IMG/VR virus record: IMGVR_UViG_3300030372_001385
Coordinates: 1-34,536 of that record
DNA: 34,536 bases
Direction: 5' to 3' (one strand)
Origin: a virus
Lineage: Duplodnaviria > Caudoviricetes
Position numbers and translations under genes: made by a program. A model generated the notes under the pieces. That model was not told the origin of the DNA. It ran no database searches and was given only the letters and a program-made list of their open reading frames with translations. Positions 6,705 through 34,536 of the stretch are shown piece after piece. Each line of letters opens with the position of its first letter. Position 1 is the first letter of the stretch.

Positions 6705-9548
6705 TCATTCAGTCATACTCGCCATTGCAACTATCTCGGATAAATCGCCTTCTGTACTCCATTGAATTGGTTGGTCATCTTTTGTAAGAAATACTAATAG
6801 GGTTCTACAATTAAAATGTAATGGTGGTGTTAATTCATTTAAAGTTGCTTCATCTTCAGCTTTAATAGTTGGTTCTAATTCTGCAACTAATTCGCAAATA
6901 TCGGATGTTCTTTCATCTAATACAGCAGATAATTGATATCCAACCACAAAATCTTTTACATCTGGGTCTTCACCAATACTTCTTCTACCATAATTATAAG
7001 AACCAAGTGTTGCTGTTCTTGTTATTGCTTCTAATCTATATGGAGCTTGAACTGTTCCATTTGGTTTAATTGTGCTTCCATCTGCAACATATGGTGAAAA
7101 TGCTTCTTCAACTGCTAACATTGTTGCAGGAACTCCTTGCCCTGTTGATATTGCATTTAACATAACAGTTGTAACATTGCTATTTACTTGTGCTAAAATT
7201 CTTTTAACATCTAATCGTGACTTGGATTGCAAAAATCGTAGAAAACCTTTGGCAACTAACCCTTGCCCTATTTTTGTCGTTGATAATTTTCTTGGTAATT
7301 CTTTCCTTGATTGTTCTGCACCTAAGTCGTAAGCCATTTGATATCCATCTTTGAAGGCATTTATCAAATCATTTTTATTTTTAATTTCTAAATTATCAAC
7401 TGCATTAAAATCTAATTTGCCTTGATTCATTTTATTTTCTATATATTTTTTTACCCCTTCCATTTGCTTGGTCATAACTGCTTGGGTATTTAATAAAAAT
7501 TCATTCTCGGCTTTATTTAATTGGTCATCTATCTTTGCATAATCAACTCTTTTTTCTGCTTTTGTTTTATAATGTTTATGACCATGACAATATACAATTT
7601 CTTTATTTAATTGTGAATTATCTTTTTTTTTAGATGATAATGGATGTCCTTCTGGAAATAAATCAGTATCATGTCTTCCACTTCTGAATCTTCCTGTTCT
7701 AAGGGCAGCTAAAAAGCTATTTACTCTAGCCATTGCCCATTGTTCACTTGAACCCACACCCGGTCTTACACTTCCGGGATTTGTTCTGAAGGCTCCAACT
7801 CCTCTATCATAAACTACTTTTAATTTACGAAGTGTAACTCTCTTTGTTTTTGTATTGCCATATTCTTCATTATGCTTATCTACTTTATTTTGAAGGGCTT
7901 TATCTCTGTTATAAGTCAAAGCATTATTATCTTGCTTTTCTAATTGAGCAGATTTCATTTTTGCCCATCTTTGTCCAGCATCACCACCCCATAATGCCCA
8001 TGCTATTCTTCCATTACTTGGAAAACCTTTTTCACCGGGTCTAAAACCTTCTGCTTGTTTATCTACTTCATGTCGTGCAAAATAACTATTCATTCTTCTT
8101 ACAGTTGTTGGTGATAAATTTTCTCTATTCTTTAATTGATTAGCTCTTGTAACTCCAATTATTGTTCCACCTCTACCAAATTCAGCTCTCCATTTTAATC
8201 CTTTTTCTGCTTCTGCTTTCATGCCTTCATTCGGTCTTAAATCTATTTCTGCATAACTATTTTCTGTAATTTGTTCTATTTCTTCTTCATCTGGAGTTTC
8301 TTCTATTTCTGTTTCTGGTTCATCTGGTTTAATATCTCTTTCTGGGAAATTTAAATTTTTTCTTAATATGTTTTCATCTTCCATTGTTGGGTTTATAACA
8401 CCCTTTTGTACTGCATCAATAAATAATGTATTCAATTGTAATTTTTGGTCATCAGTCATTGGGTTAAATTTAAAATGTGGTAATTCTTCTACATTGGAAT
8501 AATTATAAGCAACCAATCTTCTTATTAATTGCTCACCCATAACTGTATGTTCTATGTCTTGTCTTAATTTTTGTATAACCCATAAGAATACATCAAAATG
8601 TATTTTTGCTTGTGCATATGCACCAGTATCACCATCTGCCATTAATCTATCTGGAATCAATATACTTCTTGCTATAGATTTGTTATAAAAATTTAAAGCT
8701 CTTTCAAAATCATCTGTTGCACTTCTGCCTGATTCTAAAAGTTGTATATCAAATTCTTCCATTCTGTGTGTGATAGAAGTTTTAGCAGTTAAGTTATCTA
8801 ATATATTTCTTAGATTCTGCCTTGCACTTGGGTCATTTGTTTTATATTTTCCAAGTACTGTTGGGTTAGCAAATCTTTCCAAATATATATTCCACATTTT
8901 TATAAGCACATCTTTCGACCAGTAACCCCTATATGCTGGTCTTAGGTCCGATGTGCCATAATGATTGCCAAATTCTTTTTGATAACTAAATATCAGAAAT
9001 TTATTTATTGGATATCTTTTATCTTCACCACTTTCTTGATAAACAACTCCATCTTTTAATAAATTAGTATATTCATCAACAGCAAATTTATAATAATGTG
9101 GTTTTTTTGTTTTTATATTTTTTAAACCAATCTTTCCGTTAAATTGCCCACTTTCAATTGTTTTGTAATTTATTTCTGATACAGAAAAGCCATAATCTAA
9201 TGCAGTTAATATTTCTAAAACATTATCTACAATATTTCCTTGCATTTTGTTAAAACAATATTCTATAAATTCTGCAACTTCTATATCTTGTTCATCATCA
9301 CTTGCTGGTATTATTTGAAAACTTGGAGCAACTGTTGCAAATTTTTTTAATGTTAAACATGCTTTTACTTGGTCATCAACTCGCATTTGGTCATACATAT
9401 ATAACCCTCTGCGACCAATTAATGTATCAGGATTATATGGGACAATATCGCCTTTTAATCCATACATCCCAACATCAGCAGATGCTATTTCATTCATATT
9501 TGGTTTAGTTTGTTCTTGTAATTTTTTTAAATTGTCGAATAAAGCCAT
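6705..9548 (-). CDS. Portal protein (DUF935/Mu gp29-like) fused through two inserted domains to a MuF head morphogenesis domain
   Basis: N-terminal ~400 aa has portal motifs (ALDYGFSVSEI, YGTSDLR, YLERFANP, GAYAQAKIH). C-terminal YQLSAVLDERTS..C and PPLHFNCRT are MuF motifs. Located after terL. Confidence 0.85.
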   Translation of the reverse strand: MALFDNLKKLQEQTKPNMNEIASADVGMYGLKGDIVPYNPDTLIGRRGLYMYDQMRVDDQVKACLTLKKFATVAPSFQIIPASDDEQDIEVAEFIEYCFNKMQGNIVDNVLEILTALDYGFSVSEINYKTIESGQFNGKIGLKNIKTKKPHYYKFAVDEYTNLLKDGVVYQESGEDKRYPINKFLIFSYQKEFGNHYGTSDLRPAYRGYWSKDVLIKMWNIYLERFANPTVLGKYKTNDPSARQNLRNILDNLTAKTSITHRMEEFDIQLLESGRSATDDFERALNFYNKSIARSILIPDRLMADGDTGAYAQAKIHFDVFLWVIQKLRQDIEHTVMGEQLIRRLVAYNYSNVEELPHFKFNPMTDDQKLQLNTLFIDAVQKGVINPTMEDENILRKNLNFPERDIKPDEPETEIEETPDEEEIEQITENSYAEIDLRPNEGMKAEAEKGLKWRAEFGRGGTIIGVTRANQLKNRENLSPTTVRRMNSYFARHEVDKQAEGFRPGEKGFPSNGRIAWALWGGDAGQRWAKMKSAQLEKQDNNALTYNRDKALQNKVDKHNEEYGNTKTKRVTLRKLKVVYDRGVGAFRTNPGSVRPGVGSSEQWAMARVNSFLAALRTGRFRSGRHDTDLFPEGHPLSSKKKDNSQLNKEIVYCHGHKHYKTKAEKRVDYAKIDDQLNKAENEFLLNTQAVMTKQMEGVKKYIENKMNQGKLDFNAVDNLEIKNKNDLINAFKDGYQMAYDLGAEQSRKELPRKLSTTKIGQGLVAKGFLRFLQSKSRLDVKRILAQVNSNVTTVMLNAISTGQGVPATMLAVEEAFSPYVADGSTIKPNGTVQAPYRLEAITRTATLGSYNYGRRSIGEDPDVKDFVVGYQLSAVLDERTSDICELVAELEPTIKAEDEATLNELTPPLHFNCRTLLVFLTKDDQPIQWSTEGDLSEIVAMASMTE

Positions 9549-9588
9549 TTGTTAGATTATATTGTATTTTTTTAAATAATACAATAAT

Positions 9589-9658
9589 AAAAGGTGGCAC
9601 TGGAGGGATATGATGATATATGTTTTGTTTGTGGAGAAACAAAATAAGTGTGCCACCC
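9589..9658 (-). ncRNA. Structured intergenic element (terminator-like, candidate antisense sRNA)
   Basis: Outer stem GGTGGCAC (9593-9600) / GTGCCACC (9650-9657) followed by a T run on the minus strand. Inner 8-bp hairpin (9623-9644) has the minus-strand loop CUCCAC. Confidence 0.55.
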
Positions 9659-9676
9659 TAAATAATTATAGCTTAT

Positions 9677-10552
9677 CTAATTCTTTATTCTATAATCTTT
9701 ATAGATTTTCCTTTCTGAACCTAAATTTATTATCTGTGGTTTGATATAAACTTTTTTACCCGATTTATAAATTCTTAGATGACCTCTTCTTGTATGTTGT
9801 CCGGGTTTCTGTCTATTAGGAAATTTATATCCGCCTTTCTTTGATTTACTTTTAAAGATATTTATATCTAAAATCTTATAAGATACTGGTGGTAATTTAC
9901 CTTTTCTTTGTGCTAATTTTATAAGATTAGAATCTGGTTTAATTTCTTCTACCTTCTGTTCTATTTTTTCATTAGATAATAACCATGTTGTATTTGCTAA
10001 ATGGTTTAGCATGAATCTTTCATCTTTATCTATTTCATCATAGCCAAAATAATTATTATTATATTCTATTTCACCCGGGTTTGGAGTTGTAAATCTTCTA
10101 AAAGGTTTTTCAGTTAAATATTCATGGTCTGAAATTCCAACCGAAAGCCAATAATAATCAGATAAAATCCATCTTGGAGTTAATTTATCAAAATGAAGTC
10201 TTTTCATTCTAATATGATTAAAATCTGGCTCATGAATTATAATCATAAAAAAATCTGTATCGTAAGTTCTATCATCTATATAATGTATAATCCACTTTTT
10301 AAAAGGTATAGCCAATTGCATTCTTCCTAATTTACCTTCTTCTGTGCTTTTTTGTCTTTCTTCCATTATATGATTAAATTCTGTAAATCCCCATTTACCC
10401 AAACTGAATATTGGGATTTTCATAATATCTGTTTTTTCTTTCTGATTGAATGGTCTGCCATTATGAACCATTTTGGCATTACCTTGAGTATCTGCACCGA
10501 AAAAATAAACAGTTTGATTAAATTTATTATTTAGATATTTATCTATTCTCAT
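9677..10552 (-). CDS. Hypothetical protein (moron-like insertion between terL and portal)
   Basis: 291 aa with its own promoter and GAGGTG RBS. Basic C-terminal motif HTRRGHLR..KSGKKVYIKP. Confidence 0.8.
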   Translation of the reverse strand: MRIDKYLNNKFNQTVYFFGADTQGNAKMVHNGRPFNQKEKTDIMKIPIFSLGKWGFTEFNHIMEERQKSTEEGKLGRMQLAIPFKKWIIHYIDDRTYDTDFFMIIIHEPDFNHIRMKRLHFDKLTPRWILSDYYWLSVGISDHEYLTEKPFRRFTTPNPGEIEYNNNYFGYDEIDKDERFMLNHLANTTWLLSNEKIEQKVEEIKPDSNLIKLAQRKGKLPPVSYKILDINIFKSKSKKGGYKFPNRQKPGQHTRRGHLRIYKSGKKVYIKPQIINLGSERKIYKDYRIKN

Positions 10553-10569
10553 TATATCACCTCATAAGG

Positions 10570-10598
10570 ATTATAATGGATTGATATATAAAAGTCAA
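10570..10598 (-). promoter_or_regulatory. Sigma70-type promoter TTGACT-17-TATAAT
   Basis: Near-consensus hexamers with a 17-nt spacer upstream of 10552. Confidence 0.8.
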
Positions 10599-15587: not shown

Positions 15588-15826
15588 ATTTTTCCTCCTG
15601 TGCTTTCTTCGAAAGCTATTTTAAATGTTTTGTAATCTGGAAAATAATTTATTATCTTCCTTGCTCCTGCTTCTTCATCTTTATTTCTATAATAAAATGT
15701 TCTTGCATGAGCTATTTCAATTCCATTCTTATCATTTTTTGTAAGTCTTTCTCGACCTGCTATATTTGTATAAGTCCAGAATTTATTATTTTTTACTCTT
15801 TCTGCTAAATTCCTAAGATTTGCCAT
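15584..15826 (-). CDS. Hypothetical protein
   Basis: GAGGAG RBS, tightly packed operon. Confidence 0.7.
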   Translation of the reverse strand: MANLRNLAERVKNNKFWTYTNIAGRERLTKNDKNGIEIAHARTFYYRNKDEEAGARKIINYFPDYKTFKIAFEESTGGKI

Positions 15827-16017
15827 CTATGTTTCTCCTCTAAATCATAAAACCATGCCAAGACTTTATCTTTAGCCATATGTGGATATTCATCAGTTAA
15901 ATCTGTCCAATTTTTATTATATTGTTTATATTCTAGCCAGATTTTTTCTGCCATATCTGTATTGAGAAATTCAACCAAATCTTCTTCCCAACCAATTAAA
16001 ATATCTTTATAATCCAT
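15805..16017 (-). CDS. Hypothetical protein
   Basis: GGAGGT RBS, TAATG coupling. Confidence 0.7.
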   Translation of the reverse strand: MDYKDILIGWEEDLVEFLNTDMAEKIWLEYKQYNKNWTDLTDEYPHMAKDKVLAWFYDLEEKHRWQILGI

Positions 16018-16253: not shown

Positions 16254-16497
16254 TTGCTATCTCCTTTTCTAAATCATAATTTATTTTTGCTTCTTCTAAT
16301 TCTCTATGTAACCATTGGTCAATTCTGTTATAGATTTCTGATTCATCTATATCTTCCTTTATCCACCAATTTATCTGCTCGGCAGATTGTAAACTGGTTA
16401 ACCAAACTCTTATTCTTCCTGCTTGGCTTTGGCTTATATCATTCTCGATTTCCGAAAATGTTACCTTCTTCATAAAATCTTGTAATTTTATAATCAT
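16243..16497 (-). CDS. Hypothetical protein, first gene of an early operon
   Basis: GGGAG RBS downstream of a structured leader and promoter. Confidence 0.7.
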   Translation of the reverse strand: MIIKLQDFMKKVTFSEIENDISQSQAGRIRVWLTSLQSAEQINWWIKEDIDESEIYNRIDQWLHRELEEAKINYDLEKEIANGI

Positions 16498-16499
16498 AA

Positions 16500-16585
16500 T
16501 TAACTCCCTATGATGATATTGAAAATTTGAGTTTGATAGCTCATTAATTTCTGGGTTATTGAAATTAAGTTATATATCATCATAT
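16500..16585 (-). promoter_or_regulatory. Structured leader (three-way junction) overlapping a possible 27-aa uORF (16500..16583)
   Basis: 11-bp outer stem 16509-16519/16574-16584. Inner hairpins 16528-16543 and 16544-16568. Confidence 0.55.
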
Positions 16586-16589
16586 AGGA

Positions 16590-16618
16590 ATAATATAGGA
16601 ATCTTATATATAAGTCAA
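16590..16618 (-). promoter_or_regulatory. Sigma70-type promoter TTGACT-17-TATTAT with palindrome CTTATATATAAG
   Basis: Hexamers, spacer and palindrome (16603-16614) read directly from the sequence. Confidence 0.75.
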
Positions 16619-16760
16619 CAAATTATTCCAATTTAATGCAAATTGATATATATCAAATCCTATGGGTTTTATTGATATATGAAGGGTAATATATCATTTT
16701 TAAGATAACATCAAGGCAATCTATATGTAAATCAATATTAGAGGGTTTTTATATGATTTT

Positions 16761-18570: not shown

Positions 18571-18709
18571 TTTTATTCTCCTTTAATTTTTTTCTTTTTT
18601 CTACTGCTCTGCCATGTCTGGCTTTAGATTTTTTTGTATCTTCATGATTAGATTCAAAAAAACCTTTTTTCTTTTTTGGTATATTTCTTATTGTATGAAT
18701 CTGAAACAT
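18551..18709 (-). CDS. Small basic hypothetical protein (start revised to MFQIH)
   Basis: AAGGAGAACAAG-ATG at 18709. Confidence 0.65.
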   Translation of the reverse strand: MFQIHTIRNIPKKKKGFFESNHEDTKKSKARHGRAVEKRKKLKENKNGKSRL

Positions 18710-18822
18710 CTTGTTCTCCTTTAATATATGGCTCGGCATTGGGTTAACTCCCGGTTTGTATATATTGTTCCGATTTAATAAAGGTATATATCATCTGATA
18801 TCCCATTCTTAACCACATTTTA

Positions 18823-18886
18823 ATAATATAATATTTTTATATAAAAGTAAATAAATATTTACAAATAGATGTTTTTAATTTATCTT
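18823..18886. promoter_or_regulatory. Divergent promoter pair (genetic-switch-like)
   Basis: Leftward TTTACT-17-TATTAT (18851-18823) with palindrome TTTTATATAAAA. Rightward TTTACA-17-TATCTT (18858-18886), 7 nt before ATG 18894. Confidence 0.6.
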
Positions 18887-18893
18887 GTCTTTA

Positions 18894-19235
18894 ATGAACA
18901 TAAAAAATGATTTACACAAAATTGTACGAAATAAATTATCTTATGGACAAAGCATTGCAGAAGTTGCCCGTGAATATAATGTATCACGACAATACCTTCA
19001 TGCCTTGTTAAAAAAAGAAATGCCATTAATTAAAAAGGTAAAAGTGGATAATGATAATATAAAAGATTTGCCTATAAATCAAAGAATTAAAATATTAAGA
19101 AAAAACAAAGGCATTTCACAAATTCAATTATGTGAACAATTTAATTTACATCAACCAAGATTGTCTGCATTAGAAAGAAATGAACAGAATTCTACTTATT
19201 ATGAAAAGATAATTAATTATTTAGAATCTATATAG
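18894..19235 (+). CDS. Transcriptional repressor with two HTH domains (C-terminal Cro/C1-type)
   Basis: SIAEVAREYNVSRQYLH and RIKILRKNKGISQIQLC...QPRLSALER. Only convincing plus-strand gene, probably leaderless from ATG 18894. Confidence 0.8.
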   Translation: MNIKNDLHKIVRNKLSYGQSIAEVAREYNVSRQYLHALLKKEMPLIKKVKVDNDNIKDLPINQRIKILRKNKGISQIQLCEQFNLHQPRLSALERNEQNSTYYEKIINYLESI

Positions 19236-33508: not shown

Positions 33509-34362
33509 TATATTGTCACCTCATTTTCTGGATTTAGTTCTGCTCTTCTGTTTAGAAAGTATCTGTATGAATCATTTGATAATCTTCTTTTGAAAAGTTG
33601 GTCAAATGAATTTTCTGCTTTCATGGCAGGAGATATTGCTTTGTTTGCTTTTGCTTTTTTGATGGCTAATTCAATCATTGTTTCTAGAAGTTCAATCCAT
33701 TTTTGAATTTTTAGAAAATCTTGTGATGAGGAATGTTGTCTGAATTCGATTGTCCCGTTGCTCATGAAGTTTGTTAAGTTGATTGCTGTATATCTTGTTC
33801 CGTGTACCTCTGTGTGGATTTCTCTAATTGTTTGGCATCTGTTTAATGCTTTTGAATATCTTTTTAGTGGTGATGTTCTTGCATTTCTTAGTCTTAATTT
33901 GTAATCATTTCTTTTAGCCCAATTTGATTTTCTTCTGCTCATTGGAAGAATTGAATTTATATCATCTTGAAATTTTGTATATGTGATTAAAAGATTTTTG
34001 ATTGCTTTTAGTTTTTGGTCTGGAGTAAGATTTGCATCATCCATTGCTTTATCGATTCCAAAGTGGATGTGAAGTCCGGTTGATTTGTTAACCTTTGTAA
34101 TTTCGTTTGAGTTGAACCAATCTGTAATCTTTTTTAAGTCATCAAGATTTTCTAGGATTGGTGATACCAATTCAAAGTCATTTCTGTAATCAGTTTCAGT
34201 ATTGATTGAAGAATCGTAAACCATTTTCCAGTGATTTCTTGTTGAGTGGTTGTAATTTTCTGATTGAATTAAAACCTCTGTTTCATTAGTCATTTTGTTG
34301 GCTAATGTTGCTCTATCAATTTTTGATATGCCTTCTATTTCTATTCCTTTTGTTATTTTCAT
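33508..34362 (-). CDS. Putative amidoligase (COOH-NH2 ligase, glutamine synthetase-like fold), start revised to MKITKG
   Basis: GIEIE, WK.V.DSS, ELVSPIL, NKSTGLHIH, RY.AINL and GTIEFRQH. AAAGGAGAAACAAG-ATG at 34362. Confidence 0.9.
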   Translation of the reverse strand: MKITKGIEIEGISKIDRATLANKMTNETEVLIQSENYNHSTRNHWKMVYDSSINTETDYRNDFELVSPILENLDDLKKITDWFNSNEITKVNKSTGLHIHFGIDKAMDDANLTPDQKLKAIKNLLITYTKFQDDINSILPMSRRKSNWAKRNDYKLRLRNARTSPLKRYSKALNRCQTIREIHTEVHGTRYTAINLTNFMSNGTIEFRQHSSSQDFLKIQKWIELLETMIELAIKKAKANKAISPAMKAENSFDQLFKRRLSNDSYRYFLNRRAELNPENEVTI

Positions 34363-34374
34363 CTTGTTTCTCCT

Positions 34375-34536
34375 TTCTTGATTGTTTATCATCATGAGTA
34401 TAGTATGAAGGATTATATATAAATGTCAATAAGATATACACAAATTGTTTTACCCTTTGTTTATAAGGGTTCTCGGGTCGATTTTTTTAATTATATGAAT
34501 ATTCCAGTATAGGGTTCTTTTTTTTCTTCAATTATA
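34375..34536. repeat. Terminal direct repeat / circular assembly overlap (right copy)
   Basis: Matches 1..162, giving a unit genome of about 34,374 bp. Confidence 0.95.
34400..34429 (-). promoter_or_regulatory. Sigma70-type promoter TTGACA-18-TACTAT with palindrome TTATATATAA
   Basis: Perfect -35 hexamer upstream of the amidoligase. Duplicated at 26..55. Confidence 0.7.

Follow-up and report, generated by a model that had tools for sequence, protein, structure and literature searches.

What is the function of a minus-strand sequence of about 70 nt that lies between a variable gene and the portal gene of an uncultured marine phage, and that is complementary to the leaders of genes elsewhere in the same genome? 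The initial annotation of this locus, made from sequence alone, proposed a two-site antisense RNA directed against the phage's own early leaders. The window, which is the whole stretch of DNA analysed (34,536 nucleotides), is a near-complete phage record (95%) with 30% G+C, and its minus strand holds almost all of the genes. Comparison with relatives reveals a fixed core (portal, head, tail, terminase and replication initiator) and variable cassettes of small genes situated between the core genes. The cassettes typically each lie behind a TTGACA-type promoter-like site, and the inferred transcripts start with ATG. They are termed early by inference from promoter type and gene content.

A DNA search of 50,697 annotated phage records gave short chance matches only, the closest portals there being at ∼31%, and GTDB genomes gave a single weak portal match. 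Tyrosine integrase and serine recombinase domains were not found in five genomes, three of them at least 90% complete, nor was an antirepressor found among the 57 proteins of the window; these phages may have a plasmid-like lysogeny. The sole clear plus-strand gene (18885–19235) has two helix-turn-helix parts and is divergent from the replication cassette. A terminal repeat of ∼165 nt is present at 1–165 and 34372–34536, though the record is classed as linear, and its two copies differ at two bases, just before the amidoligase leader. A 949-amino-acid multi-domain glycosyltransferase/methyltransferase is encoded at 117–2966 behind the capsid gene and is found in most relatives.

Fold, strand and relatives of the element

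The minus-strand RNA is predicted to form a closing stem of 9 bp around a 50 nt interior, which has one firm and one weak inner hairpin (−17.3 kcal/mol, z −4.35, 0/200 shuffles). The stem described in the initial annotation is thus upheld; the U tail described with it amounts to four U residues in the window and is absent from a second clade of relatives. The plus strand also folds (−21.8 kcal/mol, z −4.07), and as both strands fold, the strand was assigned by a G-U bias in relatives and by the −10 box. The element has no Rfam match near the gathering score. One of four RNA runs, a marine metatranscriptome, contains contigs of the phage, mostly at least 99% alike. None covers 9515–9715, and these contigs are unable to show small RNAs, ends or strand and are hence neutral; the end of one of them, at 10563, lies 2 nt away from the start inferred for the gene 9 transcript (a single study). 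Coordinates of the features are listed in Table 1.

Table 1. Features of the element, its surroundings and its predicted targets in the window
Feature	Positions	Strand	Remarks
Predicted small RNA, ∼70 nt	9589..9659	−	5′ end near 9659; from fold and family
5′ arm of closing stem, GGGUGGCAC	9650..9658	−	From fold and relatives
3′ arm of closing stem	9592..9600	−	Runs into four U (9592–9589)
Anti-RBS segment, UUGUUUCUCC	9633..9642	−	CUCC predicted unpaired
Second segment, mirror of leader 5′ ends, AUAUAUCAUCAUAU	9601..9621	−	Continues into a second anti-SD sequence, CCCUCC
−10 box, TATAAT	9665..9670	−	5 nt before stem; no good −35 (best 3/6)
Gene 9	9677..10552	−	291 amino acids, no Pfam family; variable cassette gene upstream of element
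Portal promoter-like site, TTGTAT-17-TATAAT	9546..9584	−	7 nt before portal ATG; message predicted leaderless; binds the RNA poorly (−4.3 kcal/mol)
Target 1, amidoligase cassette	34362..34429	−	Promoter-like site 34429–34400; accessible binding −15.5 kcal/mol
Target 2, replication cassette	18709..18851	−	Promoter-like site 18851–18823; leader GGGATAT-CA-GATGATATAT; RBS GGAGAACAA
Target 3	16572..16618	−	Promoter-like site 16618–16590 and leader 5′ end; binding −12.7 kcal/mol
Target 4, gene 9 leader, GAGGTGATATAATGA	10549..10598	−	Promoter-like site 10598–10570; −11.3 kcal/mol, shuffle p 0.09
Target 5, RBS GGAGAAACA of gene starting at 15826	15826..15838	−	−9.1 kcal/mol
Further leader start, ATGATATAT	16689..16697	−	9 nt match; weak promoter-like site ahead

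Relatives carry 29 distinct versions of the element, 19 in a portal clade and 10 in the second clade. Ninety-four loci with the portal N-terminus reduce to 45 distinct upstream regions. Where portal identity is at least 72%, 19 of 20 distinct regions have a purine-rich/pyrimidine-rich closing stem 35–46 nt before the ATG; the exception, L015, retains the loop motif and has no stem. At 54–66% identity, 25 regions have no such stem before the portal gene, and in most of them the terminase gene abuts the portal gene. In this second clade, a descriptor scan located the unit before the replication initiator gene. When the strongest stem upstream of the initiator is picked with no requirement for a −10 box or loop motif, it is the element in 9 of 10 second-clade sequences and in none of 9 portal-clade sequences; L086, L089 and L103 enter the set of 29 via a scan that demands a −10 box. 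No unit was recovered at 22 of the 40 second-clade loci, many of which appear to end before the initiator gene. Pattern scans added no new member, and a candidate in L176 was dismissed as a chance match.

Stem sequences diverge between versions and yet pair. Changes on both sides are present in 12 of 32 hand-anchored columns, and a clean C-G to G-C swap is seen between L019 and L122. The pair table was anchored by hand on stems picked for pairing, and its 219/219 paired cells are therefore by construction; automatic alignment misplaces the 3′ arms (39% column identity, 0 pairs by RNAalifold). Wobbles embedded in the stems comprise 17 G-U and 3 A-C, an excess that fixes the RNA as minus-strand sense. 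Fold z scores range from −1.5 to −5.7 and loops from about 20 to 65 nt, and the inner hairpins vary among relatives from none to two. The anti-Shine-Dalgarno (anti-SD) core is kept and predicted to be open across the 29 versions, its C-rich part in nearly all, and the remaining loop bases diverge.

In 18 of the 29 versions the stem is preceded, at a distance of 2–9 nt, by a −10 box with 5–6 of 6 matches, against an intergenic background of 7.7%. This points to a promoter of the element's own, and the origin by processing from a 3′-UTR that had been proposed is not supported. Six further versions have a −10 box only 15–24 nt upstream of the stem, and the −10 is of the extended type in 8 of 29. 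The −35 sequences of early promoters (TTGACA, TTGACT or TTTACA) are present in none of the 29. The element is always at the end of a cassette. With its pairing stem, fixed strand and upstream −10 box, the unit resembles a small gene that was relocated in its entirety. To judge from these sequence properties, the element is real, conserved and RNA-like.

Several observations pertain to the surroundings. Gene 9, which has homologues in seven clusters and no family, directly precedes the element in the window, L110, L118, L119 and L122, whereas in L112 and G001 gene 9 is part of another cassette. An extra anti-SD word, CACUACCUCUUUU, lies between the −10 box and the stem in L123 (8714–8733) and L021 (349–364) and resembles a single-stranded 5′ extension. 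Further long-loop stems at the ends of cassettes or capsid genes (L118:8911–8980, L118:15171–15223, L134:20524–20588 and L080:12962–13026) are possibly second members or leaders. All 45 distinct portal upstream regions, from both clades, have a sigma-70-type site ending ∼7–10 nt before the ATG, and portal genes appear to be leaderless in both clades. The small terminase gene displays a similar leaderless-like pattern.

Complementarity to early leaders

Complementary segments had been listed in several minus-strand leaders, and all were found: a 14 nt match at 16585–16572; ATGATGATA (34395–34387) and GGAGAAACAA (34373–34364) in the amidoligase leader, at a spacing of 13 nt compared with 14 in the element; GATGATATAT (18795–18786) and GGAGAACAA (18719–18711) in the replication-operon leader; and GGAGAAACA (15838–15830), the ribosome-binding site (RBS) of the gene that starts at 15826. 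The amidoligase transcript is inferred to start at ATG 34395 with ATGATGATA, has GGAGAAACAA as RBS and has an in-frame, Shine-Dalgarno (SD)-led start at 34362. The replication leader matches over a longer stretch than had been noted, GGGATAT-CA-GATGATATAT, which gives 17 bp with a 2 nt bulge; predicted binding is −12.4 kcal/mol at 18804–18786 and only −6.1 kcal/mol at the RBS. For Target 3 the match becomes 12 nt if the RNA begins at ATG 16583. The gene 9 leader, which is in the same transcript unit as the element and matches its CCCUC part, had been overlooked. Targets in the window are 0.9–25 kb from the element.

Shuffled controls, recommended in the initial annotation, show predicted pairing with four early leaders to be far better than chance: with opening costs counted, the summed binding is −51.8 kcal/mol, against −27.5 ± 4.6 kcal/mol for shuffled loops (0/200). 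This sum covers four of six blind-defined leaders of the window and omits the one at 16697 (weak promoter, 9 nt match) and one within the terminase gene. The gene 9 leader alone has p 0.09 against shuffles. When 6866 windows of the minus strand are ranked, the top one falls inside a tail gene and is followed by the amidoligase leader and then the replication leader.

Of 21 leaders, 13 have a 5′-terminal ATG that shares its reading frame with the SD-led start, so the second segment of the RNA would cover a possible leaderless start. Possibly such leaders allow dual leaderless and SD-led initiation, or specify N-terminal isoforms. Inferred early transcripts that start with ATG are found in the window at 34395, 16583 and 10565, and among leaders of L022, L112, G001, G003, L113 and L118. 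A leaderless open reading frame of 27 codons (16583–16500) ends 2 nt before a start at 16497, where translational coupling is possible. TGATAT words, together with a TTGATATATATCAA palindrome, are clustered at 16500–16720 downstream of the replication genes; this cluster is possibly an origin or operator.

Loops and leaders also change together among relatives, and three loop types are found: UUUCUCC, ACCUCC and UUCCUU. In UUUCUCC phages the tag GGAGAAAC is present at 30 of 105 cassette starts and at none of 91 core starts, and in ACCUCC phages at none of 97 cassette starts; GGAGGT or GAGGTA is found at 25/97 cassette starts of ACCUCC phages compared with 7/105 of UUUCUCC phages, all of these being counts over related phages and therefore not independent. 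UUCCUU phages have GGAGAAAC at 5 of 47 cassette starts, every one in L115 and L117. These two are discordant, with GGAGAAAC at 5 of their 14 cassette starts and UUCCUUUCC as loop. Each loop type is confined to one region of the portal tree, and the RBS co-change thus represents about two events. The covariation with targets that had been suggested as a check is seen as matching changes of loop and leader, but with about two events and with L115/L117 against it. At a finer scale, RBS matches of second-clade phages, GGAGGTTAGATA (L096), GGAGGTACA (L082) and GAGGTAAAAA (G008), add to the case for co-change.

Perfect matches of at least 9 nt are present at 22 of 219 cassette starts and 2 of 187 core starts. 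Cassette genes generally have stronger SD sites than core genes, so that any anti-SD loop favours cassettes. In 17 phages, pairing with the element's own phage is preferred at cassette starts (p 0.001), with p 0.78 at core starts; the top-ranked phage is the element's own in just 3 of these 17. For promoter-defined leaders in 11 lineages, own binding is −19.1 and foreign −15.1 (permutation p 9e-5).

In four lineages the leaders open with four different words, each mirrored by the 3′ part of the loop of that lineage: ATGATGATA in the window, TGATGTT in L022 and L008, ATGGTTAAT in L118 and L119, and TGGTTAAGTT in L122. The 5′-end tag and the RBS site are in the order required for antiparallel pairing. 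The 5′-end match exceeds shuffles in only 4 of 11 lineages (window, B, G and H) and is absent in seven, and the 12 nt 5′-end score of lineage B comes from a leader that begins with the RBS itself; in G007 leaders the 5′-end tag expected from its loop was not found. Two-site pairing is predicted in the window and in lineages B, G and H but is not supported as a feature of the family.

Readings of the element

Seen in the sequence are a stem kept by changed pairs, a strand, a −10 box, an exposed C-rich loop, complementarity to leaders, and restriction of that complementarity to cassette genes. The element probably specifies an independently transcribed, trans-acting antisense RNA that blocks translation initiation on several early cassette mRNAs, one RNA acting on many. 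The host RNA polymerase would start at the first bases of the stem, and the end-to-end stem would stabilize the RNA, which could accumulate as infection proceeds and the early messages are turned over. CUCC may seed on GGAG, and pairing would then extend over the private RBS tag of the phage; in some lineages the second segment would cover the 5′-terminal AUG of the leader. Translation initiation on these early messages would thereby be blocked, and core messages would escape, having no tag or being leaderless. Of two possible roles, that of switching early genes off after a delay in the course of a single infection is mildly favoured over one maintained in a carrier state. The core of the initial annotation, a short RNA with an anti-RBS loop and an upstream-pairing segment against the phage's own early leaders, is supported by the conservation, the strand bias and the matching changes.

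The strongest rival is pairing in cis: the element would form the 3′ end of the message of the upstream cassette and fold back onto the RBS of that same message. The constant position at cassette ends fits this, as do the two matching leaders of L122, both in cis, and the CCCUC segment of the window and of L110, which matches the gene 9 leader (−13.9 and −20.3). Starts tagged with GGAGAAAC are also denser in the cassette just upstream of the element (11/23, against 19/82 elsewhere, in eight phages). However, 19 of the 30 tagged starts are in other cassettes, the best targets in the window belong to other operons, the window and L110 retain UUGUUUCUCC with 0/1 cis target each, and a −10 box directly ahead of the stem would be useless in a 3′ tail. 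An action in cis only is therefore unlikely. That −10 box could instead indicate a structured 5′ leader or attenuator of the downstream gene (portal or replication initiator), with the loop masking the start of that gene, as it points into this gene. In L144, L103, L082, L092 and G007 the element comes immediately before an SD site and the initiator gene, and the L103 loop matches the downstream SD site over 9 nt; for some second-clade phages a leader role is conceivable. As an account of the element generally it is improbable, since in the portal clade, and likewise in G008, L096, L134 and L089, a separate promoter-like site lies behind the stem, the portal message is predicted to be leaderless and to bind poorly, and loop changes track the leaders of distant cassettes.

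A terminator or stabilizing stem might insulate core genes from cassette read-through, its loop being a functionless inverted relic of a leader; an inverted relic had been among the alternatives of the initial annotation. A G-rich/C-rich stem at a cassette end with four U residues in the window would suit such a role, and leaders are repeated modules of which inverted copies could arise. Loops of ∼20–65 nt and the missing U run of the second clade are at variance with the short-loop GC hairpin and U run of an intrinsic terminator, and a terminator scan did not call the element. The anti-SD core, kept and predicted open across the versions, and loops that follow current leaders also speak against a mere relic, and the whole reading is improbable to the same degree as the leader reading. 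That the shared words are DNA operators (TGATAT half-sites) for a phage helix-turn-helix protein, and not sites of RNA pairing, is very improbable: four of five relatives have a match to the divergent helix-turn-helix gene, and TGATAT words, including a palindrome, cluster at 16500–16720 and 18786–18801, but the element's copy is antisense and in pairing order in every matching lineage, the G-U bias marks a single strand, and the words sit at inferred transcript starts and ribosome sites and vary between lineages. A plus-strand gene of 44 amino acids (GGAGG, then ATG at 9610), another earlier alternative, hardly merits belief. The reading frame and its SD site exist, but the frame is shifted and cut to 19 amino acids in L110, whose portal is 97% identical; an antisense SD-led frame is absent in 20 of 29 versions and of unrelated lengths in the others; and the product has no Pfam match. 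An integron-like DNA hairpin was also considered and rejected, no integrase having been found in five genomes.

Known phage RNAs and biological meaning

The C4 RNA has icd-ant as its target. As described in the sources cited, C4 of phages P1 and P7 (RF01695) is about 70–77 nt long, has an end-to-end stem and three conserved stems, P1–P3, is released from a precursor by RNase P, and governs lysogeny and immunity through an antirepressor operon; of its two pairing segments, an exposed one lies over the RBS, and the other, which varies and confers specificity, binds upstream (PMC5320573, PMC2864571). The element resembles C4 as so described in its length of ∼70 nt, its end-to-end closing stem, and, as predicted in the window and lineages B, G and H, its combination of an RBS segment with an upstream-pairing segment. 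It differs in having no conserved three-stem core (inner hairpins 0–2), in a likely promoter of its own in place of RNase P release, in targets spread across several operons instead of one antirepressor operon, and in its context, phages in which no integrase was found in five genomes. The C4 covariance model found nothing in the window with an E threshold of 1, nor in three narrow regions with the threshold relaxed to 10. The best reading is therefore C4-like logic without membership of the C4/CI families.

The P4 CI RNA is described as being cut from the transcript it controls and as pairing with flanking seqA and seqC, which leads to termination (PMC4825925). Like CI in that account, the element would be a short phage RNA with two segments that pair with the phage's own leader, and in the second clade it stands in front of a replication gene. 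Unlike the flanking CI targets, its matches are at the translation starts of distant messages, and an SD match downstream of the element is found in only some second-clade phages. In icaR of Staphylococcus aureus, the 3′-UTR is reported to pair with the 5′-UTR within one message (PMC3868564). The element shares with icaR, as described, a C-rich anti-SD motif downstream of a gene and complementary to an SD region, but has a −10 box before the stem and most of its matches in other operons. The sar and OOP RNAs overlap their targets. The source consulted names one target for each of P22 sar, lambda OOP and aQ, RNAs that repress genes of their own phage by pairing (PMC12197685). Predicted pairing with the phage's own genes is common to these RNAs and the element; the element, however, overlaps no target and matches many. 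Each phage antisense RNA against phage genes that is described in the sources cited has one target or one operon. No RNA family of the present type was listed in the literature searched, within which the phage structured-RNA catalogue (PMC10690425) was covered in part.

A one-to-many RNA that acts on exchangeable early genes via a shared tag would, if true, mean that the early-to-late switch and the exclusion of related phages can be achieved in a new way, and would explain the extended RBS found on cassette leaders and missing from core genes. Under either role, shut-off or carrier state, a close relative that carries the same tags and enters as a second phage would be silenced as well. The natural loop and leader variants, such as those of the window, L118 and L122, are ready-made cognate and non-cognate pairs. 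Perhaps, and this is put forward more tentatively, one mobile small RNA gene reads a private leader tag (5′-terminal AUG and extended RBS) and silences all variable early cassettes at both initiation sites, thus serving as an infection timer and as lineage-specific superinfection immunity without an integrase. If true, such a regulon would be a protein-free counterpart of a repressor-operator system, with a specificity that is rewritten as the tags drift.
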